DNA of 64,000 nt from a virus (taxonomy: Duplodnaviria; Caudoviricetes). Positions within the stretch are counted from its first letter, which is position 1. The number at the start of each line of letters is the position of its first letter. The stretch is from positions 1,540 through 65,539 of the IMG/VR virus record IMGVR_UViG_3300035670_000191, one strand, 5' to 3'. Under the pieces are notes generated by a model. It did not search any database. It was not told the DNA's origin and saw only the letters and a program-made list of their open reading frames with translations. This document shows positions 10,799 through 32,058 of this stretch, piece after piece. Made by a program: the position numbers and the translations under genes.

Positions 10799-13381
10799 GT
10801 GGTTAACAACATGCTTAAACGTCCAGCATTCCCAAAACACAAACCCGTTGTTGTTGTCAACGACATTCCTGTAAAGCGAGAAATACTCTCCGGGGACAAG
10901 TTTAGTGAACCAAGTAACCTCTCCCTCCTAACCTCCCTCCGCACTGGCAAAGTAAGTGCAAAGTCTTCTGCGACACCTACACAAGGTTGCTATCCAATAA
11001 ACTCCCTTGACATCCATACGACTTATGTTGACATGACATACTGGGGGGATATAGACCACAATACTGATTGGTGTCAAGAGTTGTCGGCAAAACCCGTAGA
11101 AGGCTGGATTCTGCACGAACATACAAGGGTCTGGTGCAGTCCACGTTTACACGCACAAATAACAGCCTTGGTCGCCGAAATTGAAGCCGTCAAGCCCCTT
11201 ATGGTTATAGTCACCGGGAAATGGGGCTTGTTTTGGTTGTCAGGCTTAGTTCGGTTAAGTGAAACTGCAAACAGCGGGGCGAAACAGAAACCTCTCGGGG
11301 CTTTGGCCAAGTATCGAGCAAGCATTTTATGGCTTGCAGGCAACCCGAGTATCCTACTCTACCCCATGTACCATACAGTGAATGTTCACGGTATGCCTCA
11401 AGCAGCAACAATCATAGAGTTTGACCTCCGACGTGCAGGTGACATCTTACACAATTTGCAGAAGCGCGGCCCTTCTTTCTATAAGAAACCCCCGGTTGAT
11501 GTTGTCCTTGGTACAACACTCCCAGTAGTTCGTGACTTCATAAAGCGAGAAATCCTCCCTGCGCTTGACACTGCTCCCACACTTGTGTCTGTTGACATCG
11601 AAACTATGTTTCACTCGGTGATTGACTGCATAGGTTTGGCCATAACCCCAACACGTGGAATCTGTGTACCGTTTGCCCATCTTGGCAATCCTGTCTACTG
11701 GACACCTGAAGCCGAAATAGAAGTTTGGGACTTGATTCGCAGTGTGTTGCTTCATAAGAACTGTCGGGCATTCGGCCAGAACTTCACTTATGATACGGCG
11801 TATCTAGATAAACTCTATCTTCTCCCTGTTAGAATTGCCCATGATACAATGGTGATGCACCATGCGCTGTATAACACTATGCCGAAAGACTTGGCTTTTT
11901 TGGCCAGCCGCTATTGCCAGCACTACACATACTGGAAGGATGAGATAACTGCGACGGCTGTAAGCCCTGAATCACGTTGGACATACAATGTCAAGGACAT
12001 TCTGTATACATACGAAGTCCTCAAAGAACTACAGGACATTCTTGAAGATGCTGCTGGCCCCAAAGAAGTCTATGACTTCACAGTCAACAGTCTGCTGCCC
12101 GAAGTTGTTAAGACAATGAACCGTGGTGTGTCTGTTGACGTAAGGCGTAAGGAAGACTTGCGGGACTTCTTCTCAAAACTTGCAGACAGTATCTTTGCAG
12201 ATATTCAAAGCACGCTCGGGTTTGAGATAAACCTCAACTCTGTTGCTCAGAAGAAGAAACTCTTTGTAGACTTTTTCGGCATGACCCTGCAAGTCAAGAA
12301 GCGGAAAGACGGAAGTATGGCTGAAACAACAGATGCAAAGGCCATGCTCGAGTATATGGAAACGTATCCTATGTTTCGTCCGTTTCTTGCCCTCATTCTT
12401 GAGTATGTTGCAATAACCAAGTTTACAAACACGTTTCTTGGGATGGGAGTAGATGGGGATAACCGTGTCCGGACACAATACAGAGTATCTGGTACGGCAA
12501 CAGGACGGCTGGCTTCTACTAAAAGTCTGTTTGGAAGTGGCGCAAACCTACAAAATATCCCTACTGGGGGTAAAATCGACCTACAATACGCCGTAGAATT
12601 AGTTGAAGACCACAATGCTATCGAAGACATTGTAACATATACTCAAGAGGGGGCTATTGCGCTCCCAAACATCAAGAGTATCTTTCTCTGTGACCCTGGA
12701 TATGAGATAATGGATTGCGACCTCGGTGGTGCAGACGCCCAGATTGTTGCTGCGGAGTCGGAGTGCAAATGGCTCATAGAATTCTTTGCAAACCCCAAAG
12801 GTAAGTTGTATGCCTACATTGCATCCCAACACTTACAACGGGAGATTACATCCGACAGTCCGGAGTATAAGATATACAAGAGTGTCTGTCACGGAACAAA
12901 CTACAAGCTCGGCATCGACAAGTTGTCCAAGATGCTTGGAATAAGTCTTGACAACGCAAAAGCCCTCCAAGCTTTCTATTTCTCGCTGTGCCCAGAAATC
13001 CCCAAGTGGCACGCCCACCTGGCCACCACCATAGCTCGCCGTGGCTACCTGGAAAATAAGTTTGGTCGCCGTGGCTGGTTCCTGGATAAGAACGACCCTA
13101 ATTTGCTCAACAAGGCGTGTGCGTTCCTGCCCCAGTCTACGGTAGCGGATGTTATAAACCGGGCCTGGATTCGCATTGCAAGCACGCTCCCGGATATACA
13201 GGTGTTGATGCAAGTGCATGACTCGCTTGTGCTTCAATACCCCTTGCAAAAGGCCGCCGAATACCGTAGAATAATCCCCGAACTGATGAGGATTCCCATC
13301 CCGTATAAACCGGTGCTTGTGATTCCGTCTGATTCAAAAATATCCGATACTTCGTATGGCGAAATGAGGAAAAACAAATGA
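10799..13381 (+). CDS. family A DNA polymerase with 3'-5' exonuclease and an N-terminal UDG-like domain
   Basis: VDIET, GQNFTYD, YNVKD exo motifs; TGRLAS, NLQNIP, DLGGAD, KSVCHGTNY, QVHDS; N-terminal EIEAVKP..VTG..YH is UDG-like. Confidence 0.93.
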   Translation: MVNNMLKRPAFPKHKPVVVVNDIPVKREILSGDKFSEPSNLSLLTSLRTGKVSAKSSATPTQGCYPINSLDIHTTYVDMTYWGDIDHNTDWCQELSAKPVEGWILHEHTRVWCSPRLHAQITALVAEIEAVKPLMVIVTGKWGLFWLSGLVRLSETANSGAKQKPLGALAKYRASILWLAGNPSILLYPMYHTVNVHGMPQAATIIEFDLRRAGDILHNLQKRGPSFYKKPPVDVVLGTTLPVVRDFIKREILPALDTAPTLVSVDIETMFHSVIDCIGLAITPTRGICVPFAHLGNPVYWTPEAEIEVWDLIRSVLLHKNCRAFGQNFTYDTAYLDKLYLLPVRIAHDTMVMHHALYNTMPKDLAFLASRYCQHYTYWKDEITATAVSPESRWTYNVKDILYTYEVLKELQDILEDAAGPKEVYDFTVNSLLPEVVKTMNRGVSVDVRRKEDLRDFFSKLADSIFADIQSTLGFEINLNSVAQKKKLFVDFFGMTLQVKKRKDGSMAETTDAKAMLEYMETYPMFRPFLALILEYVAITKFTNTFLGMGVDGDNRVRTQYRVSGTATGRLASTKSLFGSGANLQNIPTGGKIDLQYAVELVEDHNAIEDIVTYTQEGAIALPNIKSIFLCDPGYEIMDCDLGGADAQIVAAESECKWLIEFFANPKGKLYAYIASQHLQREITSDSPEYKIYKSVCHGTNYKLGIDKLSKMLGISLDNAKALQAFYFSLCPEIPKWHAHLATTIARRGYLENKFGRRGWFLDKNDPNLLNKACAFLPQSTVADVINRAWIRIASTLPDIQVLMQVHDSLVLQYPLQKAAEYRRIIPELMRIPIPYKPVLVIPSDSKISDTSYGEMRKNK

Positions 13382-17633: not shown

Positions 17634-18458
17634 ATGAGTGATATTGAACCCGTTGAAGTGGCCGAAGCCACTGGCCGCCCTGTTGTGATGCAAGATGGTA
17701 GTACTGTTGTGTTTGGCGACCGCGCTAACCGTAAGTCTGTTATGGACTTGGACTCGAACAGTATTACGTTCTATATTGCAACGGGTGAGATTATCCGGCA
17801 AGAGTTTGTTGGACTTCAGGCGTTCGATGGACTGGAGAATCTGAGCGTGTTTTTCCGCAGAATTATCCTGGATGGGATTCGTGCGAAGGTTAATAGTCAG
17901 GTTGGGGCTACTCCGCTTGTGAGCGAGGAGTTCATGGAAATTGAAGTAGATGGTCAAAAGGTGAAGAAGCCCACCGGTGGTTTTGTTCACAGTCTGGCAA
18001 AGTCTATTCAGGATTCGTTGGCTGAGATTGCAAGCGGTGTTTATACGAATCGGGCCATGTTGGCTTCTTCGTCACGGCGTAGTTATAGGTCGCTGACTAC
18101 TGAGCAAGAGGCTTATGCTCTGACTGCAATCCACGTGGCTTCTATTTTTGCTGCAAAGCAAGGGACTGTGGAATGGACTGTGGATGGCCTGCATATTCCG
18201 AACGTAACTGCTGATGTTCGTGCCGCATGGGCCGCTTTGCCGAAGGAACAACAAGCTGTTGTCAAAAAGAGCGTTCCGTTCAAGAAGTTTAAGGCTGACC
18301 TGGTGTTTGCGCGTAAGGGTTTTACTGTTGAGTCTCAGGCTGTTGCAACCCCTGTGGGCCTTGTAGCAGTTCCGGACGCCGGACAGTGGGATGTTACTGC
18401 TATGGAACCGGAACCGGAAGCTGACACCGAGGCTGATGCCCTGCCGTTGGCCGCGTAA
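17634..18458 (+). CDS. hypothetical protein, probably highly expressed
   Basis: 274 aa, GAGGTG RBS, own promoter, downstream hairpin. Confidence 0.8.
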   Translation: MSDIEPVEVAEATGRPVVMQDGSTVVFGDRANRKSVMDLDSNSITFYIATGEIIRQEFVGLQAFDGLENLSVFFRRIILDGIRAKVNSQVGATPLVSEEFMEIEVDGQKVKKPTGGFVHSLAKSIQDSLAEIASGVYTNRAMLASSSRRSYRSLTTEQEAYALTAIHVASIFAAKQGTVEWTVDGLHIPNVTADVRAAWAALPKEQQAVVKKSVPFKKFKADLVFARKGFTVESQAVATPVGLVAVPDAGQWDVTAMEPEPEADTEADALPLAA

Positions 18459-18597
18459 GGTTAAGGGCACGGATGCCCTAGCCCCTAGCAAGGTACCTCT
18501 ACAAAGTTGACTTGTAGTCGGGATTTTGGAAACTGGCTTTTTCCCCGGAGCAACTTTTTTCAAATTGACTTGTAGGGTGGGTTATTATAAGGGGCGA

Positions 18598-18690
18598 AGA
18601 GGACACCGGCAAAAGGGGAAATACTAAGCCCCAGTGCCGGTGTCTTGTAGGTGTGGTGAAAAGGCGGGGCTTTAGGGTCTCGCCTTTTTT
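18598..18690 (+). ncRNA. candidate small RNA (stem-loop plus terminator)
   Basis: AGGACACCGGCA/TGCCGGTGTCTT stem with inner GGGG/CCCC; terminator 18659-18690; TTGACT at 18565. Confidence 0.4.
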
Positions 18691-18723
18691 GTGTTTAGCC
18701 TTTGCTTTGGTGTTGGAGTTTGT

Positions 18724-19527
18724 ATGCGTTATCGGTTGTATCAAGGGGATTGCGCCAAAGTTATGGCTTCATTCCCGCCGGGGTCTGTTGACCTTGTTGT
18801 TACAAGTCCACCGTATGATGGGCTTAGGGCATACGAAGGGTATACGTTTGACTTCCCAAAGATTGCTGAAGAACTTTGGAGAGTTGTTACTGAAGGTGGT
18901 ATTGTTGTTTGGGTTATTGGAGATGCTACTGTTAATGGAAGTGAGACAGGAACGTCTTTTAGACAAGTGTTAAAGTTTATGGATGTTGGATTCCGGCTGC
19001 ATGATACTATGATATGGAATAAGGGGAGTTTTACGGCTGTTGGTGCTTTGAAAACACGCTATGGGCCTGTATTCGAGTATATGTTTGTACTGGCAAAGGG
19101 TAAGCCTAGAGTGTTTAATCCGATAAAGGATAGGAGGAATAAGCAAGCGGGAAAAACATCCAACGGACGGCTTCGACTCCCCGACGGTTCCATGAGGCTA
19201 AGAAGTAACCCAGACTATGTTATACCGGAATATGGGCAAAGATTTAACGTCTGGGATATACATCCGGTGAAGACCAACCGAGCCGACGACCATCCTGCCC
19301 CTTTTCCAGAAGCACTTGCAAATGACCATATTGTTTCTTGGTCGAATCCGGGAGACATAATACTTGACCCGTTCGCCGGAAGCGGAACAACATTGTTAGC
19401 GGCTTTGACAAACGGGCGGCAAGCCATTGGAATTGAAACTTCGGAAAAGTATTGTGGTATGATACGTGAGAGGCTGGCAAGACGTGGATTTCTTCCGGGC
19501 GGAAGTATTGTTGCTGTTGAAGGCTAA
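18724..19527 (+). CDS. beta-class DNA methyltransferase (probably N4-cytosine)
   Basis: VTSPPY, HPAPFP, LDPFAGSGTT. Confidence 0.92.
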   Translation: MRYRLYQGDCAKVMASFPPGSVDLVVTSPPYDGLRAYEGYTFDFPKIAEELWRVVTEGGIVVWVIGDATVNGSETGTSFRQVLKFMDVGFRLHDTMIWNKGSFTAVGALKTRYGPVFEYMFVLAKGKPRVFNPIKDRRNKQAGKTSNGRLRLPDGSMRLRSNPDYVIPEYGQRFNVWDIHPVKTNRADDHPAPFPEALANDHIVSWSNPGDIILDPFAGSGTTLLAALTNGRQAIGIETSEKYCGMIRERLARRGFLPGGSIVAVEG

Positions 19528-19573
19528 GGCAAGCCGCAAATTTATGAAAAGTGTTCTTCTGTGAGGTGATGTT

Positions 19574-19654
19574 ATGGTGTTGTTAGATGTTTTTTGGATA
19601 TGTGTTACTGCTTTGGTCACGTTCTCACTGCTCTCGGCGGTTGTAGATGATTAG
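19574..19654 (+). CDS. 26-aa hydrophobic peptide
   Basis: GAGGTG RBS; MVLLDVFWICVTALVTFSLLSAVVDD; below the ORF-track cutoff. Confidence 0.5.
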   Translation: MVLLDVFWICVTALVTFSLLSAVVDD

Positions 19655-20408
19655 GGAGTCAAGCCACGGTAGACTTATACTTGGTAACTGTCTTGACGTG
19701 CTACCCACACTCCGTGATACGTCCGCCGGGATGGTTTTGTGTGATATGCCGTATGGGACGACAGCTTGTAAGTGGGATGTTGTTATTCCTCTTGCGCCAA
19801 TGTGGCGGGAAGTTATGAGGGTTGTGAAGCCAGGCGGTGCAATCGTGCTGACAGCCACACAACCTTTTTCAAGTGTACTTGTTATGAGTCAGCCGGACTT
19901 GTTTAAGTATGCTTGGTATTGGTGTAAGAATTTTAAGACCGGACATTTGAATGCTAAGAAGCAGCCAATGAGGAGCGTGGAAGATATACTTGTGTTTTGC
20001 GATGGGCAGACAGTGTATAATCCGCAAGGGGTTGTGCCGCATGGTAAGGTGAAAGACCGGGGAGTCGGGGCCACGACAAACCGGCCTTGTGGTAGTGTGT
20101 CTTTGCAAACCCACACCGGCTATCCACACCAGCAGTTGTTCTTTGACCGTGACTTACCCTCTGTTCATCCTACGCAAAAGCCTGTTGCACTCTTTGAGTA
20201 TCTTGTAAGGACTTACACCAATCCCGGTGATACAGTAGTTGACTTTTGTTCTGGGAGCGGAACTACTGCTTTGGCGTGCATTGCTTCTGGGCGGAACTAT
20301 GTTTGTGTTGAGAAAGACCCAGGGTTTTATGAAGTAGGGGTTACGCGGGTGGGTGAGGCTGAAGCCATGCAAGCCCTGTGCCAACCGAGCGAATCTCACG
20401 CGCCGTGA
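19647..20408 (+). CDS. beta-class DNA methyltransferase (N6A/N4C)
   Basis: CDMPYG, HPTQKP, VDFCSGSGTT. Confidence 0.92.
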   Translation: MIRESSHGRLILGNCLDVLPTLRDTSAGMVLCDMPYGTTACKWDVVIPLAPMWREVMRVVKPGGAIVLTATQPFSSVLVMSQPDLFKYAWYWCKNFKTGHLNAKKQPMRSVEDILVFCDGQTVYNPQGVVPHGKVKDRGVGATTNRPCGSVSLQTHTGYPHQQLFFDRDLPSVHPTQKPVALFEYLVRTYTNPGDTVVDFCSGSGTTALACIASGRNYVCVEKDPGFYEVGVTRVGEAEAMQALCQPSESHAP

Positions 20409-20412
20409 AAAT

Positions 20413-20607
20413 TTGACAAGTGTGGTTGGGTGTGGTAGGAACGGGTTGACCGCTCTGCTTACCACACTTTTGGCTGTTTGTCAAGAGCCTGTGCCGCCAT
20501 GCACACTTCCGTCGGAATGTCAAGCCGGAAGCTGGCTGTTGACAAAGGGCTTTTGGTGTGGTAGGGCAGGCCAAGCACTTGACACACACCCCAACATGTG
20601 GTAAACC
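20413..20607. promoter_or_regulatory. cluster of sigma70-like sites in both orientations
   Basis: TTGACA-N12-TGTGG-TA at 20413(+), 20484(-), 20539(+), 20579(+); weaker copy at 20523(-). Confidence 0.75.
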
Positions 20608-20632
20608 CCCCCCCCCCACCTGGCCCCCCCCC

Positions 20633-20732
20633 ACAAAATCCATGCCACCCCTCCCTCCCTCCCCCCGGCACGGCCCTTGCACCGTCAAAATCCATGCCAC
20701 CACGCCCGACCCGACCTGGCACGAACCTTGCA
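20633..20732. promoter_or_regulatory. cluster of four sigma54-like sites
   Basis: CGGCACGGCCCTTGCA 20666, TGGCACGAACCTTGCA 20717; TGGCATGGATTTTG twice on the minus strand. Confidence 0.7.
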
Positions 20733-20827
20733 AGTTACCCCGCCACCGATCCGCCACCATAGTAAAGTTCTCGATCAACCTCGTTCTAACTCCCAAAAAA
20801 GTCCAAAAAAGCACCAACTACCCCGGG

Positions 20828-20866
20828 GGCCGCCCACAGCCCCTATCACAAAGCGTGATAACCAGC
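20828..20866 (+). repeat. 39-bp direct repeat, copy 1
   Basis: 31/39 identical to 23467-23505; contains TATCAC-N5-GTGATA. Confidence 0.7.
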
Positions 20867-21049
20867 CCTGAAATTCCCCAGAAAATTCCGGGATAAAAAC
20901 CCTGTAAACCGCATGGTTTTTCCGTGTGGGCAACAAGCGACGCCCAGTGTTGCGCCCACGCAACAATTACAACGGACTGTGATAGGGGGTTGTTGCGCGG
21001 ACGCAACAGCCAAGCCTTCGGCTCCGGTCTCCGACTTTGCATGGCCTGC

Positions 21050-22330
21050 TGCCCAAAGGTTTGCCCAAGTCCGGGTCTGCCTCGCCAAAGGTTTGCCAAA
21101 GTTTTGGTGGAAGGTTTGTCCGAGTCTGCGGCTCCCGGCTCCGGGTGTCAAGTTTCCGACAGGCCCGACAAGCAGGGCCATGGGACTGGTCAGTCCAGAT
21201 CGCCCCACCCAAACATAAACTTGGACTAACTTCCAGGGCTTGGGAGACAAGAACTTAAGGCAAGCCCTGCAAGCCCTGCAAGCCCCAAGTTGAACTTAGT
21301 TGTTGCGGGCCAAGGGCCATGCCCATTCAACAAGTTGAAGTTGGGCCTGTGGCCAAGGGCCATACCCAGTGTCAATTTTCCGACACTTGGACAAGTGGGG
21401 TTTGCCCGGCTGCCCGGCTGCCCGTGTTGCGTGTTTGCAACAAGTGGGCCGGGGCCGAGGGCTTTCCAAGTGGAACTTATTGTTGCCACAGATGTACCTG
21501 CCCACAAGTGGACTTCCAGTTTCACTTGTGGGGCTTGCCAAGTTGGCAACAAATTGACCCCAAGTTGAACTTCCATGAACTTCCATGAACTTCCAGTTGT
21601 TTGCCACAAGTGAAAAGTTAGCCAAGCCTGTTTGCAACAAGGGTGGGGGGGACTTCAATAAGTTGAACCCGGTTGAACCCGGTTGAACCCGGTTGAACGG
21701 CCAAGCCTGTTGGCTTCAATAAGTTTGGTTCCCGCCGGGCAAGCCCTGCCTGCAACAAGTTGAGTCAATGTTGGCTGTGCCATGCAACAAGTTTGGCTCC
21801 CGCCAGTGGAACAATGTTCATGCAACAAGTTAACCCGGTTAACCCTGTTAAACAATGTTTGCCAGTGGAATCCACTGGATTCAACAAGTTGAACACTGTT
21901 CATGGCTTCTTTCAGAAGTTGGGGGGGGGGGGCAATGGGCAGACTTTCAGAAGTGAAACTTATGGGCCAAGGGCAAGGGCAAGCCTGGCCAATCCCGACC
22001 AAGCCTGCAACAAGTTGACCTTGTTGACCCCGGTTGACCCCGGTTGACCCGCCCCGTTCAGCCCTTGTTCAGGTTCATGCGACAGGTTGACAGGGTGACC
22101 TTGTGGCCATGCCCCGGTTGAACCCCGGTTGCCGACAAGCCCACAAGTGTCAGTTTCCCGACAGATGGGCGGGGCAAGCCCGCTGGCTGAACAGACTGAC
22201 TGTTGACAGGCCAAGCCAGGGGCAAGCCCAAAGGGATGGCAGGTGTCAAGTGGGCACAGGGCCAAGCACCGAGGCCAAGCCCTCACGCCCTCACGCTCAC
22301 ACAAGTCGCAGCCCACAGCCCACAGCCCGG
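21050..22330. repeat. non-coding field of short tandem repeats and palindromes
   Basis: CAAGCCCTG, AACTTCCATG, GTTGAACCCG, GTTGACCCCG tandems; TTCAACAAGTTGAA palindromes. Confidence 0.8.
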
Positions 22331-22452
22331 ATTGGCCGAAGGCCTGGCCACGGCCACTTTTTTGCGTGCGGGTGCATGTGTGGATTTATAGTTACCCTAG
22401 TTGTTCTAGTTCGGAGGCCGCCGACCCGCATTCTGCCTAGGGCCGAAGGCCA

Positions 22453-22518
22453 ATAGGTGGGATAAAACAACCAGATAGGGGGGAAAATCCAACCACATAG
22501 GTGGGAAAAAACAACCAC
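22453..22518 (+). repeat. three tandem 22-bp iterons (putative plasmid-type origin)
   Basis: ATAGGTGGGATAAAACAACCAG / ATAGGGGGGAAAATCCAACCAC / ATAGGTGGGAAAAAACAACCAC directly upstream of rep. Confidence 0.85.
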
Positions 22519-22585
22519 AAAAGGGTGAATGGCCCTTGCCCTGCTCACCCCTATCGGCTAGACTGGGGCTTTTTGAGGCAGAGCC

Positions 22586-23422
22586 GTGATCGTGAAAAAC
22601 GTCCCAAGCACCGACAGCAGAATGGTGTGCCCCTTGTTGGCGGGCAACACCCATGCAAGTTTGAGCAACATTTTGTTGAACGGAAGTTTCCCTTTTTCAA
22701 ACACTGAGGCTCTTGCCATTCTTTTGTCACTTGGAGGGGTTAATTCAACTCCGACTGACAACCCTGAAACAGATGCTTACAGGAAGTCAAGAGTTTATGC
22801 GTTCAGCACAAAAGACTATGCGGCTTTGAAAAACTTGGACGCAAGACAGACTTACAGGACTTTTCTGGCAGCAGCAGAGTCCATTTTCAAGAAACACTTT
22901 GTTGTTTTTCCGTCAAAGACAAATAGAGACAAAGTCTTGTGCCGTTGGGTTAGCGAAGTTCATGCTTATGCAGATGCAGACAGGATTGGGTTTGTTTACA
23001 GTCCGACGGTTTACGACTTTATCTTTAACTTGACAGGGGATTTTACGCGGCTAAACACACTTGTGTCTTTGACCATTGAGGGAAAACACCCAAGAAGATT
23101 GTTTATGCTGCTGGAACAACAGCGGTTCAGGGGTCTTGTGGGGCAGGCAGGGTGGGGAATTGAGGAACTTTATGAGTGCTTTGGGGCAACGGAGGCGGCC
23201 AGGGAAGCGAAGGTGTTTTTCAAGGACATTTTCAATCCGTCAGTTGCGGCTTTGAAGGAAGTTGGGTATCTGGATGAGTGCGAAGTTCGGAAGGTTAAGG
23301 CTGGTCGGAACATTTCGGGAGTTGAGTTGGACTTTGTTTTGGCGTCGCAGGAGAAGTTTGCCGAAGTTTACAGGGCAGACTTGGAGCATCTTGCGAAACT
23401 GAAGGCAAGGTGGGGAAGCTAA
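22586..23422 (+). CDS. plasmid-type replication initiator (Rep_3/RepB family)
   Basis: SN.LL....FS..E, FIFNL..DFT, RRLFMLL, IEEL..FG, FFKDIF.PSV, K.GR.I; adjacent iterons. Confidence 0.85.
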   Translation: MIVKNVPSTDSRMVCPLLAGNTHASLSNILLNGSFPFSNTEALAILLSLGGVNSTPTDNPETDAYRKSRVYAFSTKDYAALKNLDARQTYRTFLAAAESIFKKHFVVFPSKTNRDKVLCRWVSEVHAYADADRIGFVYSPTVYDFIFNLTGDFTRLNTLVSLTIEGKHPRRLFMLLEQQRFRGLVGQAGWGIEELYECFGATEAAREAKVFFKDIFNPSVAALKEVGYLDECEVRKVKAGRNISGVELDFVLASQEKFAEVYRADLEHLAKLKARWGS

Positions 23423-23466
23423 CAGCCCCACTCCCGCCTCAAAAAAGCGTCAAAAAACCGACACTA

Positions 23467-23505
23467 GGCCACCCACAGCCAAAATCACATTCCGTGATAC
23501 CCAGC
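23467..23505 (+). repeat. 39-bp direct repeat, copy 2
   Basis: matches 20828-20866; contains AATCAC-N5-GTGATA. Confidence 0.7.
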
Positions 23506-24058
23506 AAAGGGCCGGCAAAGGGACTGTTCAACCTTAGACAAAGCCAGAGGGCGGACAAACTTGTCCAAAGTTCTTGGCGAACAGACAGAGCTATACTCAG
23601 GTTGTGACAGAGCATCATGGCTAAAGTTCCATGAAATCACCGATAGACGACAGTCTACCACAGATTGCCGCCGGGGGGACACGTTTAGGCAACAAACTGG
23701 GAGGGGAGTGTCAAAAAAGTGACACCCAGTGAGGGCGGGGCCGGGCCGGGGCCAAGGACGGACGGGGCAAACCCGTGAAGTGGGAAGCGTGACAGACGGA
23801 CGGGGCAAGCCGGGGGGACAAGCCCCAAAGTCCAACTTAGTCAAAGATTGTGGCGTGGCGAGGCCCAACTTAGTCCAAGTTCGTGCCGAAAGAATGGTAG
23901 ACTTAGTTTGGGGCGAGCCGGGGCAGGCCAGGGTGTACAGGTTTTGTATGGGGGGGGGCTAGCCCTGGGCGGTTGTGTGGATTTTGGCCAAGTGTCAAGA
24001 TTTTGACGGTGGGGGGGGGGGGTGTCGGTGTCCGGGTGTGGGCGGTGGGGTTAGGGTG

Positions 24059-24087
24059 TTGACGGGGAGGAGGGGGTGTGGTAGAGT
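24059..24087 (+). promoter_or_regulatory. sigma70 promoter of the Lcl gene cluster
   Basis: TTGACG-N12-TGTGG-TAGAGT (17-bp spacer, -7 T present). Confidence 0.7.
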
Positions 24088-24153
24088 GTGTGGGAAGGGG
24101 GGGGTGGCCCTCGCCCCAAACAGCAATTCCAAGCACCACCTGGCGAGAGTATC

Positions 24154-24489
24154 ATGACAGACAAATTATACAGCGAGTTTTCTGAAGTCCTAGAAGAAGT
24201 TTTCCTGGAGAGGGAGAAAGTCCCCTTTGAAAAGTCTTCCGTCAATCCTTCTCATGTATGTGTAGCTGAAAGATTTTACAAGGAGGGGTTGAAAGCAGCC
24301 GCCATACAGCTAGGGTATAGCCGGTCTGACTTCTATTTTGCGTGGAAGGTAGCACAAGTAGCAATGTACGAACATAGACAAATGTACAGTTTGCTACTAG
24401 ACAGTGACCGGGCAGACACTATAGCCTACTTTTATGACATTCCGTCATGGAACATGGTTAAAGCAATGATGGATATTTTTACAGAGTAA
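24154..24489 (+). CDS. hypothetical protein
   Basis: ATG 24154 with GAGAG RBS, downstream of the promoter. Confidence 0.65.
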   Translation: MTDKLYSEFSEVLEEVFLEREKVPFEKSSVNPSHVCVAERFYKEGLKAAAIQLGYSRSDFYFAWKVAQVAMYEHRQMYSLLLDSDRADTIAYFYDIPSWNMVKAMMDIFTE

Positions 24490-24500
24490 CAGAAAGTGGA

Positions 24501-24884
24501 GTGAGAGCGGTGCAAAGCATGAGATACGAAACAGTGACAGAAACGGAAGTATTAGACCGAAAGACAGGTTTAATATGGATGAAAGACCCTAAGATTGACC
24601 TAAATTTTGAACAAGCTAAACAATATGCAGAGAGAATTTCTACTATAAATGGAAAATTTTGGAGAATCCCTACAATAGAGGAATTAGTTAGCTTAGTGGA
24701 CTATACATTATGCACACCTAACACACCGGCATCAACATTCCCTAATATGTTACAAAATATCTATTGGTCGTTTTCAAACTATTGGGGTGAGGTTGATAGA
24801 GTCTGGGTCGTAAATTTCTACGATGGTAAGATAATGGATTATGGCCTTGGTGATAATGTTGCATTAGTTCTCCTAGTTCGGTAA
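24501..24884 (+). CDS. Lcl C-terminal / DUF1566 domain protein
   Basis: D.KTGLIW, WRIPTIEEL, YWS, WVVNF.DG, LVR. Confidence 0.88.
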   Translation: MRAVQSMRYETVTETEVLDRKTGLIWMKDPKIDLNFEQAKQYAERISTINGKFWRIPTIEELVSLVDYTLCTPNTPASTFPNMLQNIYWSFSNYWGEVDRVWVVNFYDGKIMDYGLGDNVALVLLVR

Positions 24885-24890
24885 TAAATT

Positions 24891-25292
24891 ATGAATGTCG
24901 AGGTGCAGAGCATGAGATACGTTGAAGTTTCAGAAATACACGACACGCAAACAGGGCTAATTTGGCAAAAAGTATGTCAAGGCTCATTCACTATAGAAGA
25001 AGCCATAGCCTATGTTAAGTCTTTTAACAAAAGCACAGGCATGGAATGGAGAATTCCCACAATCGAGGAACTGAATAGGTTGGTTGACAGAAGCCAATTT
25101 GACCCGGCAACTAAATTCCCAGACAGCCCTAGTGGACTTTTCTGGTCATCTACAAAGTATCTTGGGAGGCCAGAAAGGGTATTCACCAATGAAAACAGCC
25201 ATAGTTATTGGTATATTAACTTCACTAATGGGGAGGTAAGTTTCAACTTAGGGGATTCTGAGTATTACCTAAGGTTAGTCCGTGATAAGTAA
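24891..25292 (+). CDS. Lcl C-terminal / DUF1566 domain protein
   Basis: DTQTGLIWQ, WRIPTIEEL, FWSST, INF.NG, LRLVR. Confidence 0.88.
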   Translation: MNVEVQSMRYVEVSEIHDTQTGLIWQKVCQGSFTIEEAIAYVKSFNKSTGMEWRIPTIEELNRLVDRSQFDPATKFPDSPSGLFWSSTKYLGRPERVFTNENSHSYWYINFTNGEVSFNLGDSEYYLRLVRDK

Positions 25293-25322
25293 TGCGGTTA
25301 AACAGAAACATAAGGCAGAAGC

Positions 25323-25721
25323 ATGAGTAAGTTAAAACAAATTGGTAGGGTAAAAGGTAAGGATTCCGCTAGCGATTCCATTGTATACTTGGAAAAACAC
25401 GCTAAGAGCAATGGGAAACTGTATTACGGTTTAGTTGTTGCAGAGACACCTGACGGAGTGATTAAGCCATATTTAATGGACGACATTATCGCGTCATTTG
25501 ACCTAGATGCACCGCTTATTGGAATGGAGGTTACTGTAGATAACCCACTTGAGTTTATTCAAAGTTGGCGAGACGTTTATAACTTAGAAAGCGTTATAAA
25601 GATGTACCGGAGAAACAACCCAAGCTCCTCTACGTTGCCGTTGTTACAAGCCGACCTGCTAGAGGCTTTAGATAAAATATGGTCTGAATTGACTAATTTG
25701 AAATACCGGAGAAGAATATGA
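25323..25721 (+). CDS. hypothetical protein
   Basis: 132 aa ORF overlapping the next start. Confidence 0.65.
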   Translation: MSKLKQIGRVKGKDSASDSIVYLEKHAKSNGKLYYGLVVAETPDGVIKPYLMDDIIASFDLDAPLIGMEVTVDNPLEFIQSWRDVYNLESVIKMYRRNNPSSSTLPLLQADLLEALDKIWSELTNLKYRRRI

Positions 25722-26086
25722 GATACGTTGAAAAAGCAGAATCAGAAATCCTTGATACCAAAACCAATTTGGTTTGGCAAAGGTCATACGAGACCATGAC
25801 ATTTGATGAGGCTCACGCTTATGCAAAGCGTGTTTCAGATGTTACAGGGCAACAATGGAGGGTGCCGACACTGGATGAATTGACGAGTCTGATTGACAGA
25901 TCAACAAGAAACCCCGCGTCGGCATTTCCTGGTATGCCTCCGGTATGGTTTTGGTCGTCGTCGCCGTACGTCGGCTATACCAGTTGCGTCTGGGGTGTCA
26001 ATTTCGGCGATGGCAGTGTCTACGGCAGCGGCAGCCGTGGCTACGGCTACGGCGCGGTTCGGTTGGTTCGTGATGCAATACCCTAA
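25718..26086 (+). CDS. Lcl/DUF1566 protein with a DGR-type variable region
   Basis: WRVPTLDEL, FWSSS, VRLVR; 3' codons almost all NNY. Confidence 0.88.
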   Translation: MRYVEKAESEILDTKTNLVWQRSYETMTFDEAHAYAKRVSDVTGQQWRVPTLDELTSLIDRSTRNPASAFPGMPPVWFWSSSPYVGYTSCVWGVNFGDGSVYGSGSRGYGYGAVRLVRDAIP

Positions 26087-26222: not shown

Positions 26223-26633
26223 TCACAGGCCAAATTTAGCCTTCTCCGCCCTTCCCCAAGCCCGGATACCCTCCACATAGGCATTGTAGATATTAAACTC
26301 ATCCGAAGGCGCAGTCCGAATAAGTTTAATCTCATCATACAAAGCGTATCGTTCTGCAATCTTTTCCCTAACTCGTGCATTCACCAGAGCAACATGCGGG
26401 CTACTAGCCGAAAGTGCTTCCTTAAGTTCCGGAGTCAGCGTCACAGTTTCAATAGTAATCTGGCTTGGTTGTTCGGGCAATACAAGATTATCAGGTATAC
26501 TTACATACATATATTCGTCAAGTTTTCCAAGAAATGTGGGGAAAGGCCCGTCCATTTCAGTCGAAGGCGTGTATAGTAAGTTGTAGGTAGTATACTCATC
26601 CGATACCGGTATGTATTTAACTATAGAAGGCAT
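26223..26633 (-). CDS. hypothetical protein, possibly a fibre-associated chaperone
   Basis: 136 aa, GAGG RBS, directly after the Mtd-like gene. Confidence 0.75.
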   Translation of the reverse strand: MPSIVKYIPVSDEYTTYNLLYTPSTEMDGPFPTFLGKLDEYMYVSIPDNLVLPEQPSQITIETVTLTPELKEALSASSPHVALVNARVREKIAERYALYDEIKLIRTAPSDEFNIYNAYVEGIRAWGRAEKAKFGL

Positions 26634-26691
26634 TGGTTGTCCTCATTGTGTTAGATTGTGGTAGTTTTGGGCTATCGCTCCAACACTATTT

Positions 26692-28062
26692 TTACAGGTA
26701 AAGGCCGGAGCGGCCGCCCACAGTGTCGTTCGAGTACGACCCTACGTGGCCGAGATAAAACGCCCAAGCCCCGGCACCCGGCCCATGGCCCCAGTAGCCG
26801 CCGGAGATCGGGCACAGGCCGATCGGTTTGTAATCCCCTATCCCGTCTAATCCGAAATGATTAGACCCGGCCCCAGATGCCCCGTCGACCTGCGGTATGC
26901 CCATTCCGGTCAATCGCCAGTTTGGGGTGGTGCGGTCGCTGCTGGCAGCAAATACGCCGTTGGCGGCATTTCCAAACCGCAGGGACTGGTTTGTTCCGGT
27001 CAATGCTCCAGTATCCGTTCCGTATGTGTGGCTGTAAAATACGTCGCTGTTGTACGTAAATGCCGTGTCGGCAGTAATATCCCGACAGGCAACCGCTTCC
27101 TTTAGTAAATACAGCAGTGTGCCGTCTGACGTAATCCCCGGGGTTACTTCCCACATATTTCCGTTTAAGTCAGCTACCCCACAATTCTGACCGTTATGCG
27201 TAGTTTTGGCAAACGGCGTTCCACTGCCAGTTTTGCCGCAGTTGGGGTATCCGTCAGATGTATATTGCACGTTAGTATCGTCAATATCCAGCAGGGCGTT
27301 ATTATTGTTCCCCTTGGGAAAGTTACTGAAACCGCTCGCGTTATACCACGCACACGTTGTGTTACTCGTCACCGCCTGTGCGTGTGCCTGTGCTAGCAAT
27401 GCCAGTGCCGCATATTGATGCCTGAATACAGGGAAAAACTGGGCGCCGTAATACCCGCCCCGAGTTTTACTCGCAGCAAATGCTCCGTCGTATCGGTTCT
27501 GCGCGGAGGTCATCCCGGTCAGGTTGCCCCAGGGGTTATGATCTGCGTGACTTGACAATGGATTTCCATTTTTAATTGAACTAGCCCGGCCTGCATTATT
27601 GGCCCACTGGTATTTATCGACAAAAAATCCGGGTTTTGACACTCCGCCGTCAATAAACCCCCGGTGCAAAGCATATCCTGCCGCATTTGCATCTGTTTCC
27701 GAAGCAAACGTAAAATCGCCAGCAATATCTATGGCATTAGCCCCATATACCGAGTATCTTGGACTACCAGAATTGCCAATTCTATAATAGAATCGGGGTA
27801 TCCAAGCCATGATACTCCCGTCTGTATACATATAATTTCCCCAGTTATCGTGTACTGGGTCATACGTCCCTACCATCGTCGCAAAGTCTGTCGGAACATC
27901 CAGTGGATATGGTGCAATACCAAACCCATAACTCCCGGCAATACCTATGTCACTTGCACCGTGCATATACTGGGGGTGTATCGTGTCCCCCCGTTGTAAC
28001 TCGCTTATTTGCCAAGTCCCGTCTGGTTTTTGAAAAAACTTTAATGGTACTATGTTAGTCAT
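26692..28062 (-). CDS. Mtd-like C-type-lectin (FGE-type) receptor-binding protein with a DGR-type variable region
   Basis: GFFVDKY, THNG..CGVADLNGNMWE, C-terminal ISGGYW..AGAWA..VGGRS. Confidence 0.85.
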   Translation of the reverse strand: MTNIVPLKFFQKPDGTWQISELQRGDTIHPQYMHGASDIGIAGSYGFGIAPYPLDVPTDFATMVGTYDPVHDNWGNYMYTDGSIMAWIPRFYYRIGNSGSPRYSVYGANAIDIAGDFTFASETDANAAGYALHRGFIDGGVSKPGFFVDKYQWANNAGRASSIKNGNPLSSHADHNPWGNLTGMTSAQNRYDGAFAASKTRGGYYGAQFFPVFRHQYAALALLAQAHAQAVTSNTTCAWYNASGFSNFPKGNNNNALLDIDDTNVQYTSDGYPNCGKTGSGTPFAKTTHNGQNCGVADLNGNMWEVTPGITSDGTLLYLLKEAVACRDITADTAFTYNSDVFYSHTYGTDTGALTGTNQSLRFGNAANGVFAASSDRTTPNWRLTGMGIPQVDGASGAGSNHFGLDGIGDYKPIGLCPISGGYWGHGPGAGAWAFYLGHVGSYSNDTVGGRSGLYL

Positions 28063-28071
28063 ACATCACCT

Positions 28072-29484
28072 TTACACTAATGGAATGTTAATACTTGAAC
28101 CGTCAGCCATTTGGCCAGTCAAAGCATAAGTAGGTAGGGTTTGCCAAGTCTTATCCCCACGATAATACTGCAAATTCGTACCTGCTGCAATAGTACCTTC
28201 TTTTGCATCAAGTGCAGTCTGCATAGCAGTAGACACTGGCTTACTTGCATCACTTGTGTTATCCACATTAGCTAAACCAACGTCACTCTTACTTAGAGTA
28301 ACCTCCCCCGTCTTACCCGCTACACTCGTAACAGTATTAACCTGCGCTCCAAGGGCAATTCCAGCCAACTTATCCTTCTCAACTAGCGTGAAATCTTCAC
28401 TTGACAGTCCCTTGCCAGCAATCTTATCAACCTTTTTGTCAAGTTCCGCTTGTGTAGCAGAGCTAACAGGCTTACTTGCATCACTTGTATTGTCAACATT
28501 GGCTAGGCCAACATCTGCCTTCACAAGAGTAACATCACCGGTTTTAGCCGCCACACTTGTAACTACGTTAACCTGTGCCCCTTCGGCAATTCCAGCTAAC
28601 TTAGTTTTCTCAGCCGTGCTGTAGTCTTCTGTAGACAGACCTTTCCCTGCAACCTTATCTACTTTCCCTTCCAGCCCCGTGGTCACACTACCGGAAAGCG
28701 TAGTAATTGCTCCGTCAAGCGAACCATCTGCCGCTTGAAAAGCAGTTACAATCTCACTCAACGAATTCAGTGCCGTTGCATCAACATTTGACAGAATACT
28801 ATCAATCTGTCCTTGCAAAGCAGCATCGCCTGCAACCCGGTTACTTGCCTCCGTTGCAATACTCGTCGTCAGGGTCGCTTCAGCAGATTGCGCTCTAGTA
28901 ACCTCGCTGGCAAGATTGCTTGTAAGCGTAGTATCAGCATTCGCACGTAGCGTAGCTTCATTCGCAATCACCATAGTCATCACGGCTTCGGTCGGAAGAT
29001 AAATTCCATTTACCCTCACGCCTCCGCTGTCCAGCATAACTTCTTCATTCGCTCCGACAATCAAACCTGTCGTTCGAATCTGCGGAACATCAAGTTTCTC
29101 TGGGGCAACTACAATTACAGTCCCAAGGGTAGGGGCGGTGAAGTTAAGCGTAAATGTGTTGAGATTTATATCTGTCTTATTAACAGACAAGATATTACCA
29201 TTCTCATCCTTGACTTGAAACCACAAGTTCTGTGAGTTCAAGTAATGGTTTACCGTCCAGGTTTGTGCAGCCAATCCCTGCGAGTGTATGTAACTTGCCG
29301 TTGCCGTTGCATACGGGTACCAAGTTTCAAGATTCCCGACAAGAATGTAAACGTACATACAGTTATTCTTCATAACCATAGTACCAAGGCGGGGGTTTAG
29401 GGGAAATTCAGTAACTTGACTTACAAGGGCTAGGTTCCCGTGTAAGTCTAAGTCTCCAAGATGATTAACAGTATGCTGTGACAT
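28072..29484 (-). CDS. fibre/whisker-like virion protein
   Basis: two KVDK.AGKGLS.ED and VTSVA.KTG.VTL.K.DVGL.NVDNTSD repeats; coiled coil; WTVNH module. Confidence 0.75.
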   Translation of the reverse strand: MSQHTVNHLGDLDLHGNLALVSQVTEFPLNPRLGTMVMKNNCMYVYILVGNLETWYPYATATASYIHSQGLAAQTWTVNHYLNSQNLWFQVKDENGNILSVNKTDINLNTFTLNFTAPTLGTVIVVAPEKLDVPQIRTTGLIVGANEEVMLDSGGVRVNGIYLPTEAVMTMVIANEATLRANADTTLTSNLASEVTRAQSAEATLTTSIATEASNRVAGDAALQGQIDSILSNVDATALNSLSEIVTAFQAADGSLDGAITTLSGSVTTGLEGKVDKVAGKGLSTEDYSTAEKTKLAGIAEGAQVNVVTSVAAKTGDVTLVKADVGLANVDNTSDASKPVSSATQAELDKKVDKIAGKGLSSEDFTLVEKDKLAGIALGAQVNTVTSVAGKTGEVTLSKSDVGLANVDNTSDASKPVSTAMQTALDAKEGTIAAGTNLQYYRGDKTWQTLPTYALTGQMADGSSINIPLV

Positions 29485-29499
29485 ATTTTACCTGCTTGA

Positions 29500-29913
29500 C
29501 TAGCCAGAATTGTGCGTGATATTAGCCATAACAAGACAAGAACCTGCTGTTGGCCGAAGAAACTGCAAAACAAGTCTTTCAGGCGACACGACTGATTGGC
29601 TACAATCTACTGGCACACCCTCCATATCCTTAACTTGCACCCAACAATCAGTAGCCCCAAGGCCATGTTCGACAGTCCACTGACTTGCAGCCTCCGTTTG
29701 CATGTGAACATAATTCACAGGTATTCGCCCGAATGGACACCAAGCAACGAAGTCTGACTGCGGATTAACCTTAACATAGCCCCAAAACACTCCGTCTTTT
29801 ACAACAAATAATCCTGGCGGAGGATTAGGCGGGAAACTATCTACTTGTGCGAATATCAGCGATGCAACTTCTATATCCGCCAGAATCCGAACATCATCGT
29901 CAGAACTAGACAT
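29500..29913 (-). CDS. paralogue of the N-terminus of the adjacent fibre protein
   Basis: FPPNP..G..V.KD..W.PF, YVH.Q..A..WTVEH.L shared with 28072..29484. Confidence 0.7.
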   Translation of the reverse strand: MSSSDDDVRILADIEVASLIFAQVDSFPPNPPPGLFVVKDGVFWGYVKVNPQSDFVAWCPFGRIPVNYVHMQTEAASQWTVEHGLGATDCWVQVKDMEGVPVDCSQSVVSPERLVLQFLRPTAGSCLVMANITHNSG

Positions 29914-29917
29914 GGGT

Positions 29918-30112
29918 TTAGGTGCTTGTGGGATGTGACAGGCTCTCAGGGTCAGGCGCACCAACGAAAACAACGTCCCCGTTTATGGCCTGCACCATCA
30001 AGTCCAGTAGAAAGTATTGTTCGGACAAAAAAGGGAGGGTTATGGGCGAGTTTTGGATGTTGAAGCGTAACCTCTTAATCCATCCAACAGCTTGACTTGT
30101 CTGAATGCTCAC
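29918..30112 (-). CDS. hypothetical protein
   Basis: 64 aa, tightly packed in the operon. Confidence 0.5.
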   Translation of the reverse strand: MSIQTSQAVGWIKRLRFNIQNSPITLPFLSEQYFLLDLMVQAINGDVVFVGAPDPESLSHPTST

Positions 30113-30327
30113 CCAAGCCCTTCCATTCTTGCCAAAACTTCAAGTCGTTCGTAGTATCGCTTCAGAAAAGCAACATTACTCTTGAATGTATCTGCGTCTT
30201 GTTGGGACATGAAGTCTGTTATTCCAGCAAGTGTTTCCAAGTCACCTAGAGCCTCAATCAATAAGTCCCTAACAACCCGAACACTTGTGATTCCTGAAAT
30301 ATCAACAGACTTCAGTCCCTCGGCCAT
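30109..30327 (-). CDS. hypothetical protein
   Basis: 72 aa in the operon. Confidence 0.65.
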   Translation of the reverse strand: MAEGLKSVDISGITSVRVVRDLLIEALGDLETLAGITDFMSQQDADTFKSNVAFLKRYYERLEVLARMEGLG

Positions 30328-30338
30328 GCTGACGGGCC

Positions 30339-31586: not shown

Positions 31587-31587
31587 C

Positions 31588-31785
31588 TTAAGACCTCAAG
31601 AATTTTTTAAGTGAGAGAAGTTCAAAATCCACTCCCCTGCAACAACTATTGCTGTGCCGGACTCGCCACTCAGATTCAGATAAGTCTGTCTCGAACCAAA
31701 AACACCCACTCTTGTATTCTGTGAATACCGCCCCGTGATACTTCATGTATGCCGCAAGATGTAGGTCTTTGACCCGTATAAGCAT
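31588..31785 (-). CDS. small DUF5659-like protein
   Basis: KDLHLAAYM...G...F.F pattern; GAGG RBS. Confidence 0.5.
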   Translation of the reverse strand: MLIRVKDLHLAAYMKYHGAVFTEYKSGCFWFETDLSESEWRVRHSNSCCRGVDFELLSLKKFLRS

Positions 31786-31789
31786 AGCC

Positions 31790-32050
31790 TCAGTATATTT
31801 CATTTGTGCGTCCAATACCAAACACGACATCGGCATATCCTGCGGTTGGGTAAGTGAATGATAGAATTAACTCATTTGCAGTCAATGTGTGACTTGGTAT
31901 TTGTCTGCGGCCCTGTAAGTCGAAGACTTGATAGTTTAAGAAGTTTGTCCCTCTATTGTGGGATATTGTCCAAGTCTTTTGAGGAAGCGGAAAATGGTAA
32001 CGAGTATTCCCACCGAGGCTTGCTGTAATTGTGCGCTTAATTATACTCAT
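31790..32050 (-). CDS. small protein consisting of the WT..H module
   Basis: TWTISHNRG..QVFD..L.F..PTAG. Confidence 0.7.
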   Translation of the reverse strand: MSIIKRTITASLGGNTRYHFPLPQKTWTISHNRGTNFLNYQVFDLQGRRQIPSHTLTANELILSFTYPTAGYADVVFGIGRTNEIY

Positions 32051-32058
32051 GCACTGCC

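Follow-up and report, generated by a model that had tools for sequence, protein, structure and literature searches.

The window, by which we mean the whole 64-kb stretch of DNA analyzed here, is taken from the 65.5-kb linear IMG/VR virus record IMGVR_UViG_3300035670_000191 (completeness rated 78%), and its gene content is that of a phage of the siphovirus type. At 20632-20732 it carries four short boxes similar to the promoters that bacterial sigma-54 (RpoN) recognizes. By their sequence and layout, these boxes make up one instance of a non-coding element that recurs in phages; in this element, sigma-54-type boxes alternate between the strands in a fixed register and are accompanied by C/G-rich tracts. 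Sigma-54 is alone among bacterial sigma factors in binding promoters and then waiting. Without an activator its holoenzyme is a stable and silent closed complex, and the start of transcription needs an AAA+ activator.

The boxes and their sequences

From left to right, the four boxes are S1 (GTGGCATGGATTTTGTG, 20632-20648, minus strand), S2 (CCGGCACGGCCCTTGCA, 20665-20681, plus strand), S3 (GTGGCATGGATTTTGAC, 20684-20700, minus strand) and S4 (CTGGCACGAACCTTGCA, 20716-20732, plus strand). The strand order is thus -+-+, with start-to-start spacings of 33, 19, and 32 nt, and S3 faces S2 across a 2-nt gap. A preliminary description of this DNA had reported the same four sequences, and re-extraction recovers each of them where it had been placed. 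Its two plus-strand sites do match the RpoN consensus: S4 is a perfect consensus box, and S2 has one mismatch, a C for T ahead of the GG. The two minus-strand copies had been presented as full matches, and this holds for one half only. S1 reads TGGCATGGATTTTGT and S3 reads TGGCATGGATTTTGA; the -24 half is intact in both, but the -12 GC is replaced by GT in S1 and by GA in S3, which makes them weaker sites.

The count of four also left out a strong fifth box, S0 (TTGGCACAGGGCTTGCA, 20368-20384, minus strand), which lies within the 3′ end of a methyltransferase gene (19647-20408) and antisense to it. The related site that had been noted far to the left is real: this solitary strong box, GTGGCATGGATTATGCA, occupies minus-strand positions 2087-2103 and keeps both its GG and its GC. 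The window thus has one cluster at 20368-20732 plus this solitary 2087 site. The -24 GG and the -12 GC stand at their exact spacing, within TGGCAYR-N4-TTGCW, in S2, S4, S0, and the 2087 site, and not in S1 and S3.

Statistical weight of the boxes within the window

A simple pattern search is already suggestive. TGGCACG-N4-TTGC, with at most one mismatch, has 4 matches in the window where 1.16 are expected, a number reached in 1 of 100 shuffles, and 3/4 of these matches are inside 363 nt (20369-20731). For a whole-window RpoN scan we used a weight matrix of 17 positions, a heuristic one, with frequencies approximating published logos and not taken from a database. Over both strands (128 kb) the four highest scores are those of S4 (20.2), the 2087 site (18.6), S2 (17.3), and S0 (16.6), and the next unrelated match scores 12.9. 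The control consisted of 300 dinucleotide shuffles of 500-nt blocks. The shuffled sequences contain on average 0.23 sites scoring at least 16.6, with a maximum of 2, and none of the 300 reaches the 4 that we observe. Taken singly, S1 (13.8) and S3 (12.7) have scores in the background range.

Sites known to be occupied in vivo provide another comparison. Nine 17-mers bound in E. coli by chromatin immunoprecipitation with sequencing (ChIP-seq), as quoted in passages of one study (PMC4591121), score between 12.9 and 17.4 on the same matrix, and the six sites of the window score between 12.7 and 20.2, that is, equal or higher. The bound sites quoted in those passages include pspG, with TTGT at the -12 element, and another with TTGA, so that even S1 and S3 are in the range of sites bound in vivo.

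Not all boxes of the array have arisen separately. S1 and S3 are identical at 16/16 positions over CAAAATCCATGCCACC, and they have 12 nt in common with the 2087 site. S1-S4 amount to two copies of a unit of ~51-52 nt, hence they are not four independent events. One could then propose that we are looking at chance matches multiplied by local tandem duplication in GC-rich repeat DNA, the more so as TGGCA and TGCA are ~1.5-fold over-represented in the window. We find this scarcely credible, given the shuffle result, given that S0 and the 2087 site are outside the duplication, and given that the same register is found in other phages (below). Moreover, the two unit copies agree at 16/16 and 14/17 positions in the boxes, versus 8/15 in the linker and 6/20 downstream; as the identity is concentrated in the boxes, the boxes are the part that has been kept. 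A population variant from another study has 28 letter differences and 32 gap positions over 20609-21664.

Arrays of boxes in other viral contigs

Searching viral contigs for GGCACG-N4-TTGCA occurring twice within 25-50 nt, we find at least 119 loci, versus 1 for the same pattern written backwards. The 119 listed loci (1.0 Mb) contain 753 boxes by the matrix, or 0.75 per kb compared with 0.08 per kb in the window, and 90 of them have clusters of at least 3 boxes. We observe two kinds of arrangement. In same-strand arrays, neighboring boxes tend to be 25-29 nt apart (115 of 297 same-strand neighbor pairs in the listed loci). In alternating arrays, the distance is 18-22 nt for 90/110 convergent pairs, and for 71/100 divergent pairs it is 22-25 or 31-35 nt. 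The register in the window is that of the alternating architecture, as can be seen by comparison with the spacings in locus L095 (19, 33, 18, 31, 18) or L171 (19, 35, 19, 35, 19). We define the class of alternating sigma-54-box arrays as at least 3 boxes within 150 nt of one another, on alternating strands, with spacings of 18-22 nt (convergent) and 22-25/31-35 nt (divergent). The array in the window belongs to this class, including the C/G tract and the setting poor in open reading frames (ORFs). Reverse boxes close to the word shared by S1 and S3 are found elsewhere as well, for example GCAAAACCCATGCCAAC in L079, L087, and L139; the S1/S3 word itself, sought as occurring twice in viral contigs, had no match.

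What is conserved among these boxes goes beyond what the search imposes. In 438 distinct strict sites there is a T or C in 83% before TGG and a purine in 72% after CAYR, while the 4-nt spacer varies; these positions outside the search pattern match the extended sigma-54 consensus. The contigs that carry arrays span GC contents from 0.29 to 0.68. Of 83 arrays, 34 have a C/G tract no more than 120 nt away, versus 38 of 727 control windows, and the ORF cover around arrays is 0.38 versus 0.66 in controls. A sigma-70-type pattern (TTGACN-N16-18-TANNNT) is not enriched by the arrays, with 7/83 versus 74/727.

The placement within genomes can be evaluated in four phage records that are at least 94% complete. 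Each has one box cluster, and the backwards pattern is found 0 times. The cluster holds 16/16 of the boxes in G003, 14/16 in G001, and 5/5 in G005; another record has two boxes in each copy of a terminal repeat, where "terminal repeat" in an assembled contig may merely mark the place at which the assembler broke a circle. G003 is a complete 67.7-kb phage genome, with all of its 16 strict boxes within 1.2 kb; at 18550-19063 (5434-5948 of L154) it has 15 same-strand boxes in 515 nt, many of them exactly 25 nt apart. In L099, positions 6940-7037 are a perfect 27-nt tandem repeat with CGGCACGATAATTGCA in every unit, which indicates that such arrays can grow by recent duplication of units. Another setting is seen in L082, L139, L141, L156, L162, and L183, where a C-rich tract, 4-5 tandem sigma-54 boxes, and two perfect DnaA boxes (CCTGTGGATAAC twice) occur together, with an alternating array after them. 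Judged by its motifs, this setting is origin-like, as it is in the window.

One group of contigs has boxes interleaved with a TTGACA-N12-TGTGGTA motif ahead of an operon. A related TTGAC-N13-TGTGGTA motif flanks the array in the window, and in five array-bearing records with motifs of this type (TTGAC-N12-14-TGTGGTA) we found no homolog of the phage's polymerase and no Rep3_N domain. Since these records share the motifs without homologs of either protein, the shared signals look host-derived rather than inherited. Apart from the terminase gene row of one clade, no protein family common to the array-bearing loci was found, nor were any cultured relatives of the array-bearing clades.

The surroundings of the array

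The preliminary description had the sites standing with no adjacent gene. This is right insofar as there is no coding-like ORF of at least 90 amino acids (aa) in 20409-22585: all ORFs of that length have negative codon scores, and past the array there is no coding ORF for 1.85 kb. It overlooked, however, sigma-70-type promoter-like motifs upstream and a module with a Rep_3-type initiator gene and iterons downstream. Read from the left, the layout is S0, promoter cluster, C12, C9, S1, C-rich linker, S2, S3, S4, A-tracts, and palindrome. The array is the left edge of a 3.7-kb module (~20410-24090) with a GC content of 54% versus ~47% elsewhere.

The promoter-like motif is TTGAC-N13-TGTGGTA, of the extended -10 type. 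The window has 5 exact copies, all of them flanking the module: P1 (20413-20437), P2 (20539-20563), and P3 (20579-20603, with C12 directly after) on the plus strand, P(-) at 20460-20484 on the minus strand, facing P1, and P4 at 24059-24083 on the plus strand, ahead of the DUF1566/Lcl_C gene row. P1 and P(-) together make a ~72-bp inverted repeat (20413-20484), and their predicted start points coincide, which is odd for two real promoters. Given these coinciding starts, it is a possibility that the motif also serves as a word to which a protein binds.

Over 20600-20850, the plus strand is rich in C (48%) and poor in G (14%), with C12 at 20606-20617, C9 at 20624-20632, and CCCCTCCCTCCCTCCCCCC. 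The module has a border of opposite composition on its right, so that the two borders mirror each other: G makes up 57% of 23950-24100, and the G-rich plus-strand stretch 23944-24056 contains G12, GATTTTGACGGTG, and GGTTGTGTGGATTTTG, imperfect inverted copies of several words of the left border. The inverted copy of the S1/S3 word at this right border is not sigma-54-like. On the minus strand there are G-quadruplex-type motifs at 20606-20632 and 20648-20676, and 6 of the 10 such motifs of the window fall within 20606-24056. The RNA predicted from the plus strand of the array region is unstructured (z = -0.30, -23 kcal/mol for 200 nt); as a long, C-rich, G-poor, and unstructured transcript, it would have the features expected of a rut site. 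Sliding RNA folds gave only strand-symmetric signals, that is, DNA palindromes, and against Rfam there was no family at gathering score (one chance-level match, E 0.59) and no tRNA.

It may be that the C-rich and G-rich DNA is itself what functions, either by loading Rho or as G-quadruplex or i-motif border marks, and that the sigma-54 likeness is incidental. The composition of both borders, the unstructured RNA, the concentration of G-quadruplex-type motifs, and the C/G tracts found beside arrays elsewhere are all in line with this. It leaves unexplained four consensus-grade boxes, kept while the linkers diverged, and it gives no reason why it is the boxes that recur in other phages, whose C tracts by the arrays are only 9-11 nt long. 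We regard it as very unlikely.

The module beyond the array looks like a theta-type origin of this phage. Its single ORF of at least 90 aa with coding-like codon usage is the rep gene (22586-23422, plus strand), which encodes a Rep_3-type initiator (PF01051, E 5.2e-13; phrog_4402) and has phage-like codon usage. The closest relative of this Rep among 1.8 billion representatives is 48% identical. Directly upstream of the gene there are three 22-bp iterons (22453-22529, plus strand), and upstream of these is the DnaA-box-like TGTGTGGATTT (22378-22388). An initiator with tandem iterons next to its gene is what characterizes a Rep_3 iteron origin; the module has this, and S1-S4 are not part of it, being unlike the 22-bp iterons and 1.7 kb away from them.

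The A-tracts and the palindrome that follow the array belong to a cassette with paired A6 tracts, CCCACAGCC, and the palindrome ATCAC-N5-GTGAT (20790-20866, plus strand), which has a second copy after the rep stop codon (23430-23505). The ~75-nt A6/CCCACAGCC copies are 72-79% identical, and parts of them recur near 2110-2235 in the early control region. Between the cassette and the iterons there is ~1.5 kb of repeat DNA. In this ORF-poor, GC-rich stretch (20870-22350), words of the CAACAAGTTGA type occur along with 10-bp tandem repeats and with palindromes of the type GTGTCA-N6-TGACAC. There are ~25 words of the type CA(A/C)AAGT(T/G), all on one strand, several of which form TTCAACAAGTTGAA palindromes, and between the words there are tandem 9-10-bp repeats: GGTTGAACCC x3-4 at 21664-21695, GGTTGACCCC at 22025-22056, and GCAAGCCCT x3 at 21260-21286. 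From their arrangement, these repeats may be a centromere-like array or an accessory origin array. The GTGTCA-N6-TGACAC-type palindromes, at 21145, 21369, 22147, 23707, 23992, and 2005-2027, overlap TTGACA words. As a set, which the origin module and the early control region share, they look like operators of a dimeric regulator.

A population variant of the module from another study drops whole repeat units (20 nt, 10 nt), the variant positions including 21662, 22019, 22220-22286, and 23552-23750; it has a 65-nt stretch swapped for 67 other letters, and 197 nt just past rep swapped for 1481. Its rep has only 15 letter differences in 1267.

A proposed docking platform for sigma-54

In the reading that we favor, the array would be a platform on which host sigma-54 or its holoenzyme docks, and not an ordinary promoter set; we put the probability of this reading at about 0.45. 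One argument for it comes from the recurrence: because the conserved positions are the sigma-54 contacts and they recur over GC contents from 0.29 to 0.68, a conserved host binder would be the easiest explanation. Another comes from the geometry. With S2 and S3 face to face and a 2-nt gap between them, the boxes cannot all fire as promoters, and head-to-head boxes, with no gene after them and no encoded activator, favor a docking platform over promoters.

No PF00158 activator ATPase was found in the 65.5-kb record (rated 78% complete) or in five other array-bearing records, and no enhancer-like inverted repeat was recognized at the usual upstream distance by the array. The phage record also has no PF04552 sigma-54 DNA-binding domain. 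A search for this domain gave one sub-threshold match of 11.9 bits that contains a stop codon, and we treat it as noise. A search of the five array-bearing records for a single-subunit RNA polymerase (PF00940), run without a positive control, found none.

In the mechanism that we propose, host sigma-54 or its holoenzyme would occupy the boxes as silent closed complexes. The bound holoenzyme would be a barrier or a competitor, and it would gate sigma-70 transcription from P1-P3 into the origin module. In addition, at a high copy number of the phage it could draw sigma-54 off host promoters. Since sigma-54 binds and waits, a cluster of its sites would be a natural trap. The preliminary description had raised such sequestering of RpoN. 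What can be retained of this is that the sites are statistically strong and recurrent, and that the geometry, the lack of a gene, and the lack of a phage enhancer-binding protein favor binding or sequestering over ordinary promoters. On its other suggestion, that the phage couples its own control to host sigma-54 signaling, the evidence speaks neither for nor against.

A more general claim is that phages of many lineages carry a sigma-54 DNA "sponge" that captures sigma-54 or its holoenzyme as silent closed complexes. Such a sponge would shut down the sigma-54 regulon (stress, RNA repair, motility, nitrogen), or else it would build a polymerase barrier that insulates replication or early modules. 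We put this forward tentatively, doubting it more than we believe it. The concept is that of decoy arrays of binding sites that titrate transcription factors (e.g., PMC8599769, PMC7826281), with many non-regulatory sites soaking up a DNA-binding protein. Our literature search, partly swamped by "macrophage" papers, found no sigma-54-box array and no sigma-factor decoy described on phages. Taken at face value, the arrays point to an undescribed phage way to engage or trap sigma-54.

If arrays of this kind are a common phage device, they would be a new manipulation of the host polymerase that needs no phage protein, they would account for some of the non-coding DNA that uncultured phages conserve, as a class of its own, and they would provide a simple sequence signature that predicts rpoN in the host of a phage. 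If the sponge reading is true, phages would have a mode of host takeover that works by sequence alone and uses no protein.

Several observations weigh against sigma-54 docking. First, the weight matrix was composed after the sites had been seen, and the search pattern itself selects for consensus, so that the "universality" of the boxes is partly built in. Second, a single clade, whose arrays are within ~1.5 kb of terS/terL, accounts for 33 of the 119 listed loci, and 74 of the 119 fall in one single-linkage group (at least 1 shared protein). Linked in this way by clade and by shared proteins, the locus counts overstate the number of independent events, and the recurrence could be largely lineage-specific. 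Third, the tandem pattern occurs in 0 of 401 bacterial genomes of one phylum, which shows it to be rare in bacteria, while the viral count is a lower bound and the two numbers are not a formal enrichment comparison. Fourth, S1 and S3 do not have the -12 C, and the 16 nt over which their common word agrees throughout take in spacer positions where sigma-54 should impose no constraint; this spacer identity may mean that something else binds there or that the copy was made recently. Fifth, the dense same-strand arrays with boxes 25-29 nt apart resemble iterons. Finally, the matrix gives no match of at least 10 inside the three annotated -24/-12 promoter fragments of a phage reported to use sigma-54, YuA.

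Some of these points would be expected if the boxes were instead recognized by a DNA-binding protein that the phage encodes (or by another one of the host), as iterons, centromeres, or terminase-recognition sites are, their likeness to sigma-54 sites being coincidental. Dense and alternating arrays look like iterons and like operator inverted repeats, a single cluster is seen in each of the four nearly complete records, the loci are concentrated in one terS/terL clade and one linkage group, the 16/16 identity of the S1/S3 word includes its spacer, no enhancer-binding protein was found, and the array is at the edge of an origin module. The iterons and operator repeats of Rep_3 plasmids and lambdoid phages are likewise direct and inverted short repeats by an initiator, in ORF-free DNA, with one cluster per genome. 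Iterons, however, are usually alike across their whole length, while the boxes keep the sigma-54 contact positions only, and the true iterons of this Rep are the different 22-bp repeat described above. The conserved positions are exactly those of sigma-54: TGGCA(C/T)(G/A), a variable 4-nt spacer, TTGC(A/T), and the upstream purine and pyrimidine preferences. They recur across the range of GC contents, in phages that share neither polymerase nor Rep, and, beyond the one terminase row, no protein family shared across the array loci was found. As for terminase recognition, a cos or pac site would be adjacent to the terminase or at a genome end, and in the window 22 kb separate the array from the terminase gene. 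We take this to be the main alternative and a serious one, if less probable than docking. If a phage protein does bind the boxes, the arrays would still be a widespread and unannotated cis-element at origins and early regions.

The boxes could also be working sigma-54 promoters, with a host enhancer-binding protein or an unrecognized phage activator setting them off. S2 and S4 would then be directed rightward into the origin, giving activation or a non-coding RNA, and S0, S1, and S3 leftward, giving a G-rich antisense RNA. Transcription by an origin can activate the origin, as in phage lambda. The boxes are of consensus quality, and the solitary 2087 site is directed at the leftward helicase operon. 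In the viral locus L071, single boxes are scattered among small ORFs, but the spacing from box to start codon there has no regular leader or ribosome-binding site. In the array itself, the 2-nt gap between S2 and S3 bars simultaneous occupancy by two polymerases; no coding ORF follows for 1.85 kb, and neither an activator gene nor an enhancer-like repeat was recognized. Elsewhere, arrays whose boxes repeat at 25-nt intervals leave too little room for promoters. We think it rather unlikely that the boxes work in this way.

Among phages, YuA is the closest precedent. Passages of two reports (PMC5053324; bioRxiv 10.1101/2023.10.13.562163) describe this Pseudomonas phage as strictly dependent on host sigma-54, and the passage in the first of them calls the use of sigma-54 by phages rare and names YuA as the sole case. 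In the GenBank record of YuA, three promoters of the late region are annotated as "-24/-12", with activity in a promoter trap. YuA (Yuavirus) is, as is the phage here, a siphovirus with an early region that encodes a helicase, an exonuclease V-like protein, a thymidylate-type enzyme, and DNA polymerase A. Its sites are single promoters of weak consensus ahead of late structural genes, whereas the boxes here are consensus-grade, arrayed, and gene-free at the replication module, with none ahead of structural genes.

Relation to other known systems

Compared with bacterial sigma-54 -24/-12 promoters, the boxes have the same exactly spaced GG and GC doublets and the same TGGCAYR and TTGCW blocks around a variable spacer. 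They differ in that there is no gene after them and no enhancer-binding protein or recognizable enhancer, in that they are crowded together, facing each other or turned back to back, with spacings of 19 and 32 nt, and in that 2 of the 4 are without the -12 C.

E. coli sigma-54 binds many non-productive or intragenic sites, including antisense ones in genes (Bonocora et al. 2015, PMC4591121, in the passages quoted). As described in those passages, such sites have no obvious gene that they drive, and those antisense within genes are like S0; they are also solitary and chromosomal, whereas the boxes here are arrayed in order on a phage, in an arrangement that other phages also have.

A likeness of another kind is to the T7-type phages. 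These have clustered early promoters for the host polymerase, A1, A2, and A3, and P1-P3 are similarly strong host-type promoters, in tandem in a short gene-free stretch. Here, unlike in T7, the cluster is mid-genome and leads into non-coding DNA. No sigma-54 element is known in the T7 promoter cluster. In one viral clade, sigma-54 boxes and promoters of this kind are interleaved upstream of an operon. Overall, the boxes are, from their sequence, known ones in a phage architecture that is new, ordered, and recurrent.

The early control region and the rest of the genome

The solitary box at 2087-2103 is located between the divergent early promoters, with phased A-tracts next to it, and its minus-strand orientation points toward the leftward helicase operon. 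This operon is served by a consensus promoter, TTGACA-N16-TATAAT, at 2022-1995 on the minus strand, and the rightward operon has a promoter-like TTGACG word at 2135-2140 on the plus strand.

The helicase operon occupies the left part of the window and runs leftward. It stands before a long series of genes for replication and nucleotide functions, read rightward, with a Dda-like helicase, thymidylate synthase, exonuclease, DNA polymerase A (10799-13381), MazG, and ligase. This series ends in two N6/N4 methyltransferases, the last of which ends at 20408. After the origin module comes the DUF1566/Lcl_C row (24088-26086), then the leftward head, portal, and terminase genes (26223-45927), with TerL at 42806-44827 on the minus strand, and the rightward tail genes, including a 2075-aa tape measure. 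The DUF1566/Lcl_C region at 24501-26086 holds three tandem paralogs of ~130 aa that are 43-48% identical to one another, and there are two unrelated small ORFs in the row.

The phage has no close relative in GenBank phages and plasmids. Nucleotide searches with 19500-22500 and with 20400-24100 against phages and plasmids gave no match, and no related loci were found in viral and metagenome contigs by way of Rep, the ORF at 17634-18458, the DNA polymerase, or the Rep relative P0002. The alignment of Rep homologs has no stretch conserved enough to be used as a search query, and in a word-indexed protein search the query protein matched only itself. TerL, the polymerase, and Rep have distant matches only, at 25-33% identity, in phages and plasmids of various Proteobacteria and others, and TerL had no match in genome contigs. 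As for the host, the protein atlas returned Rep3_N clusters only. DUF1566 homologs are found in Myxococcota, Spirochaetes, Campylobacterota, Burkholderiales, and others, and they are too weak to name a host (48% identity on short segments, at most 37% over most of the protein).

The sequence is present in 13 public runs, from subsurface and freshwater metagenomes, with no RNA run among those listed, and the contigs from public runs end at the C12 and G12 tracts. Across the window GATC is strongly avoided, with 24 occurrences versus 248 expected and 0 versus 62 for RGATCY; GGATCC, CGATCG, and GGCGCC are likewise avoided, and the phage encodes the two N6/N4 methyltransferases mentioned above. 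AGCT, CTAG, TCGA, CGCG, and GCGC occur at 0.36-0.45 of expectation.

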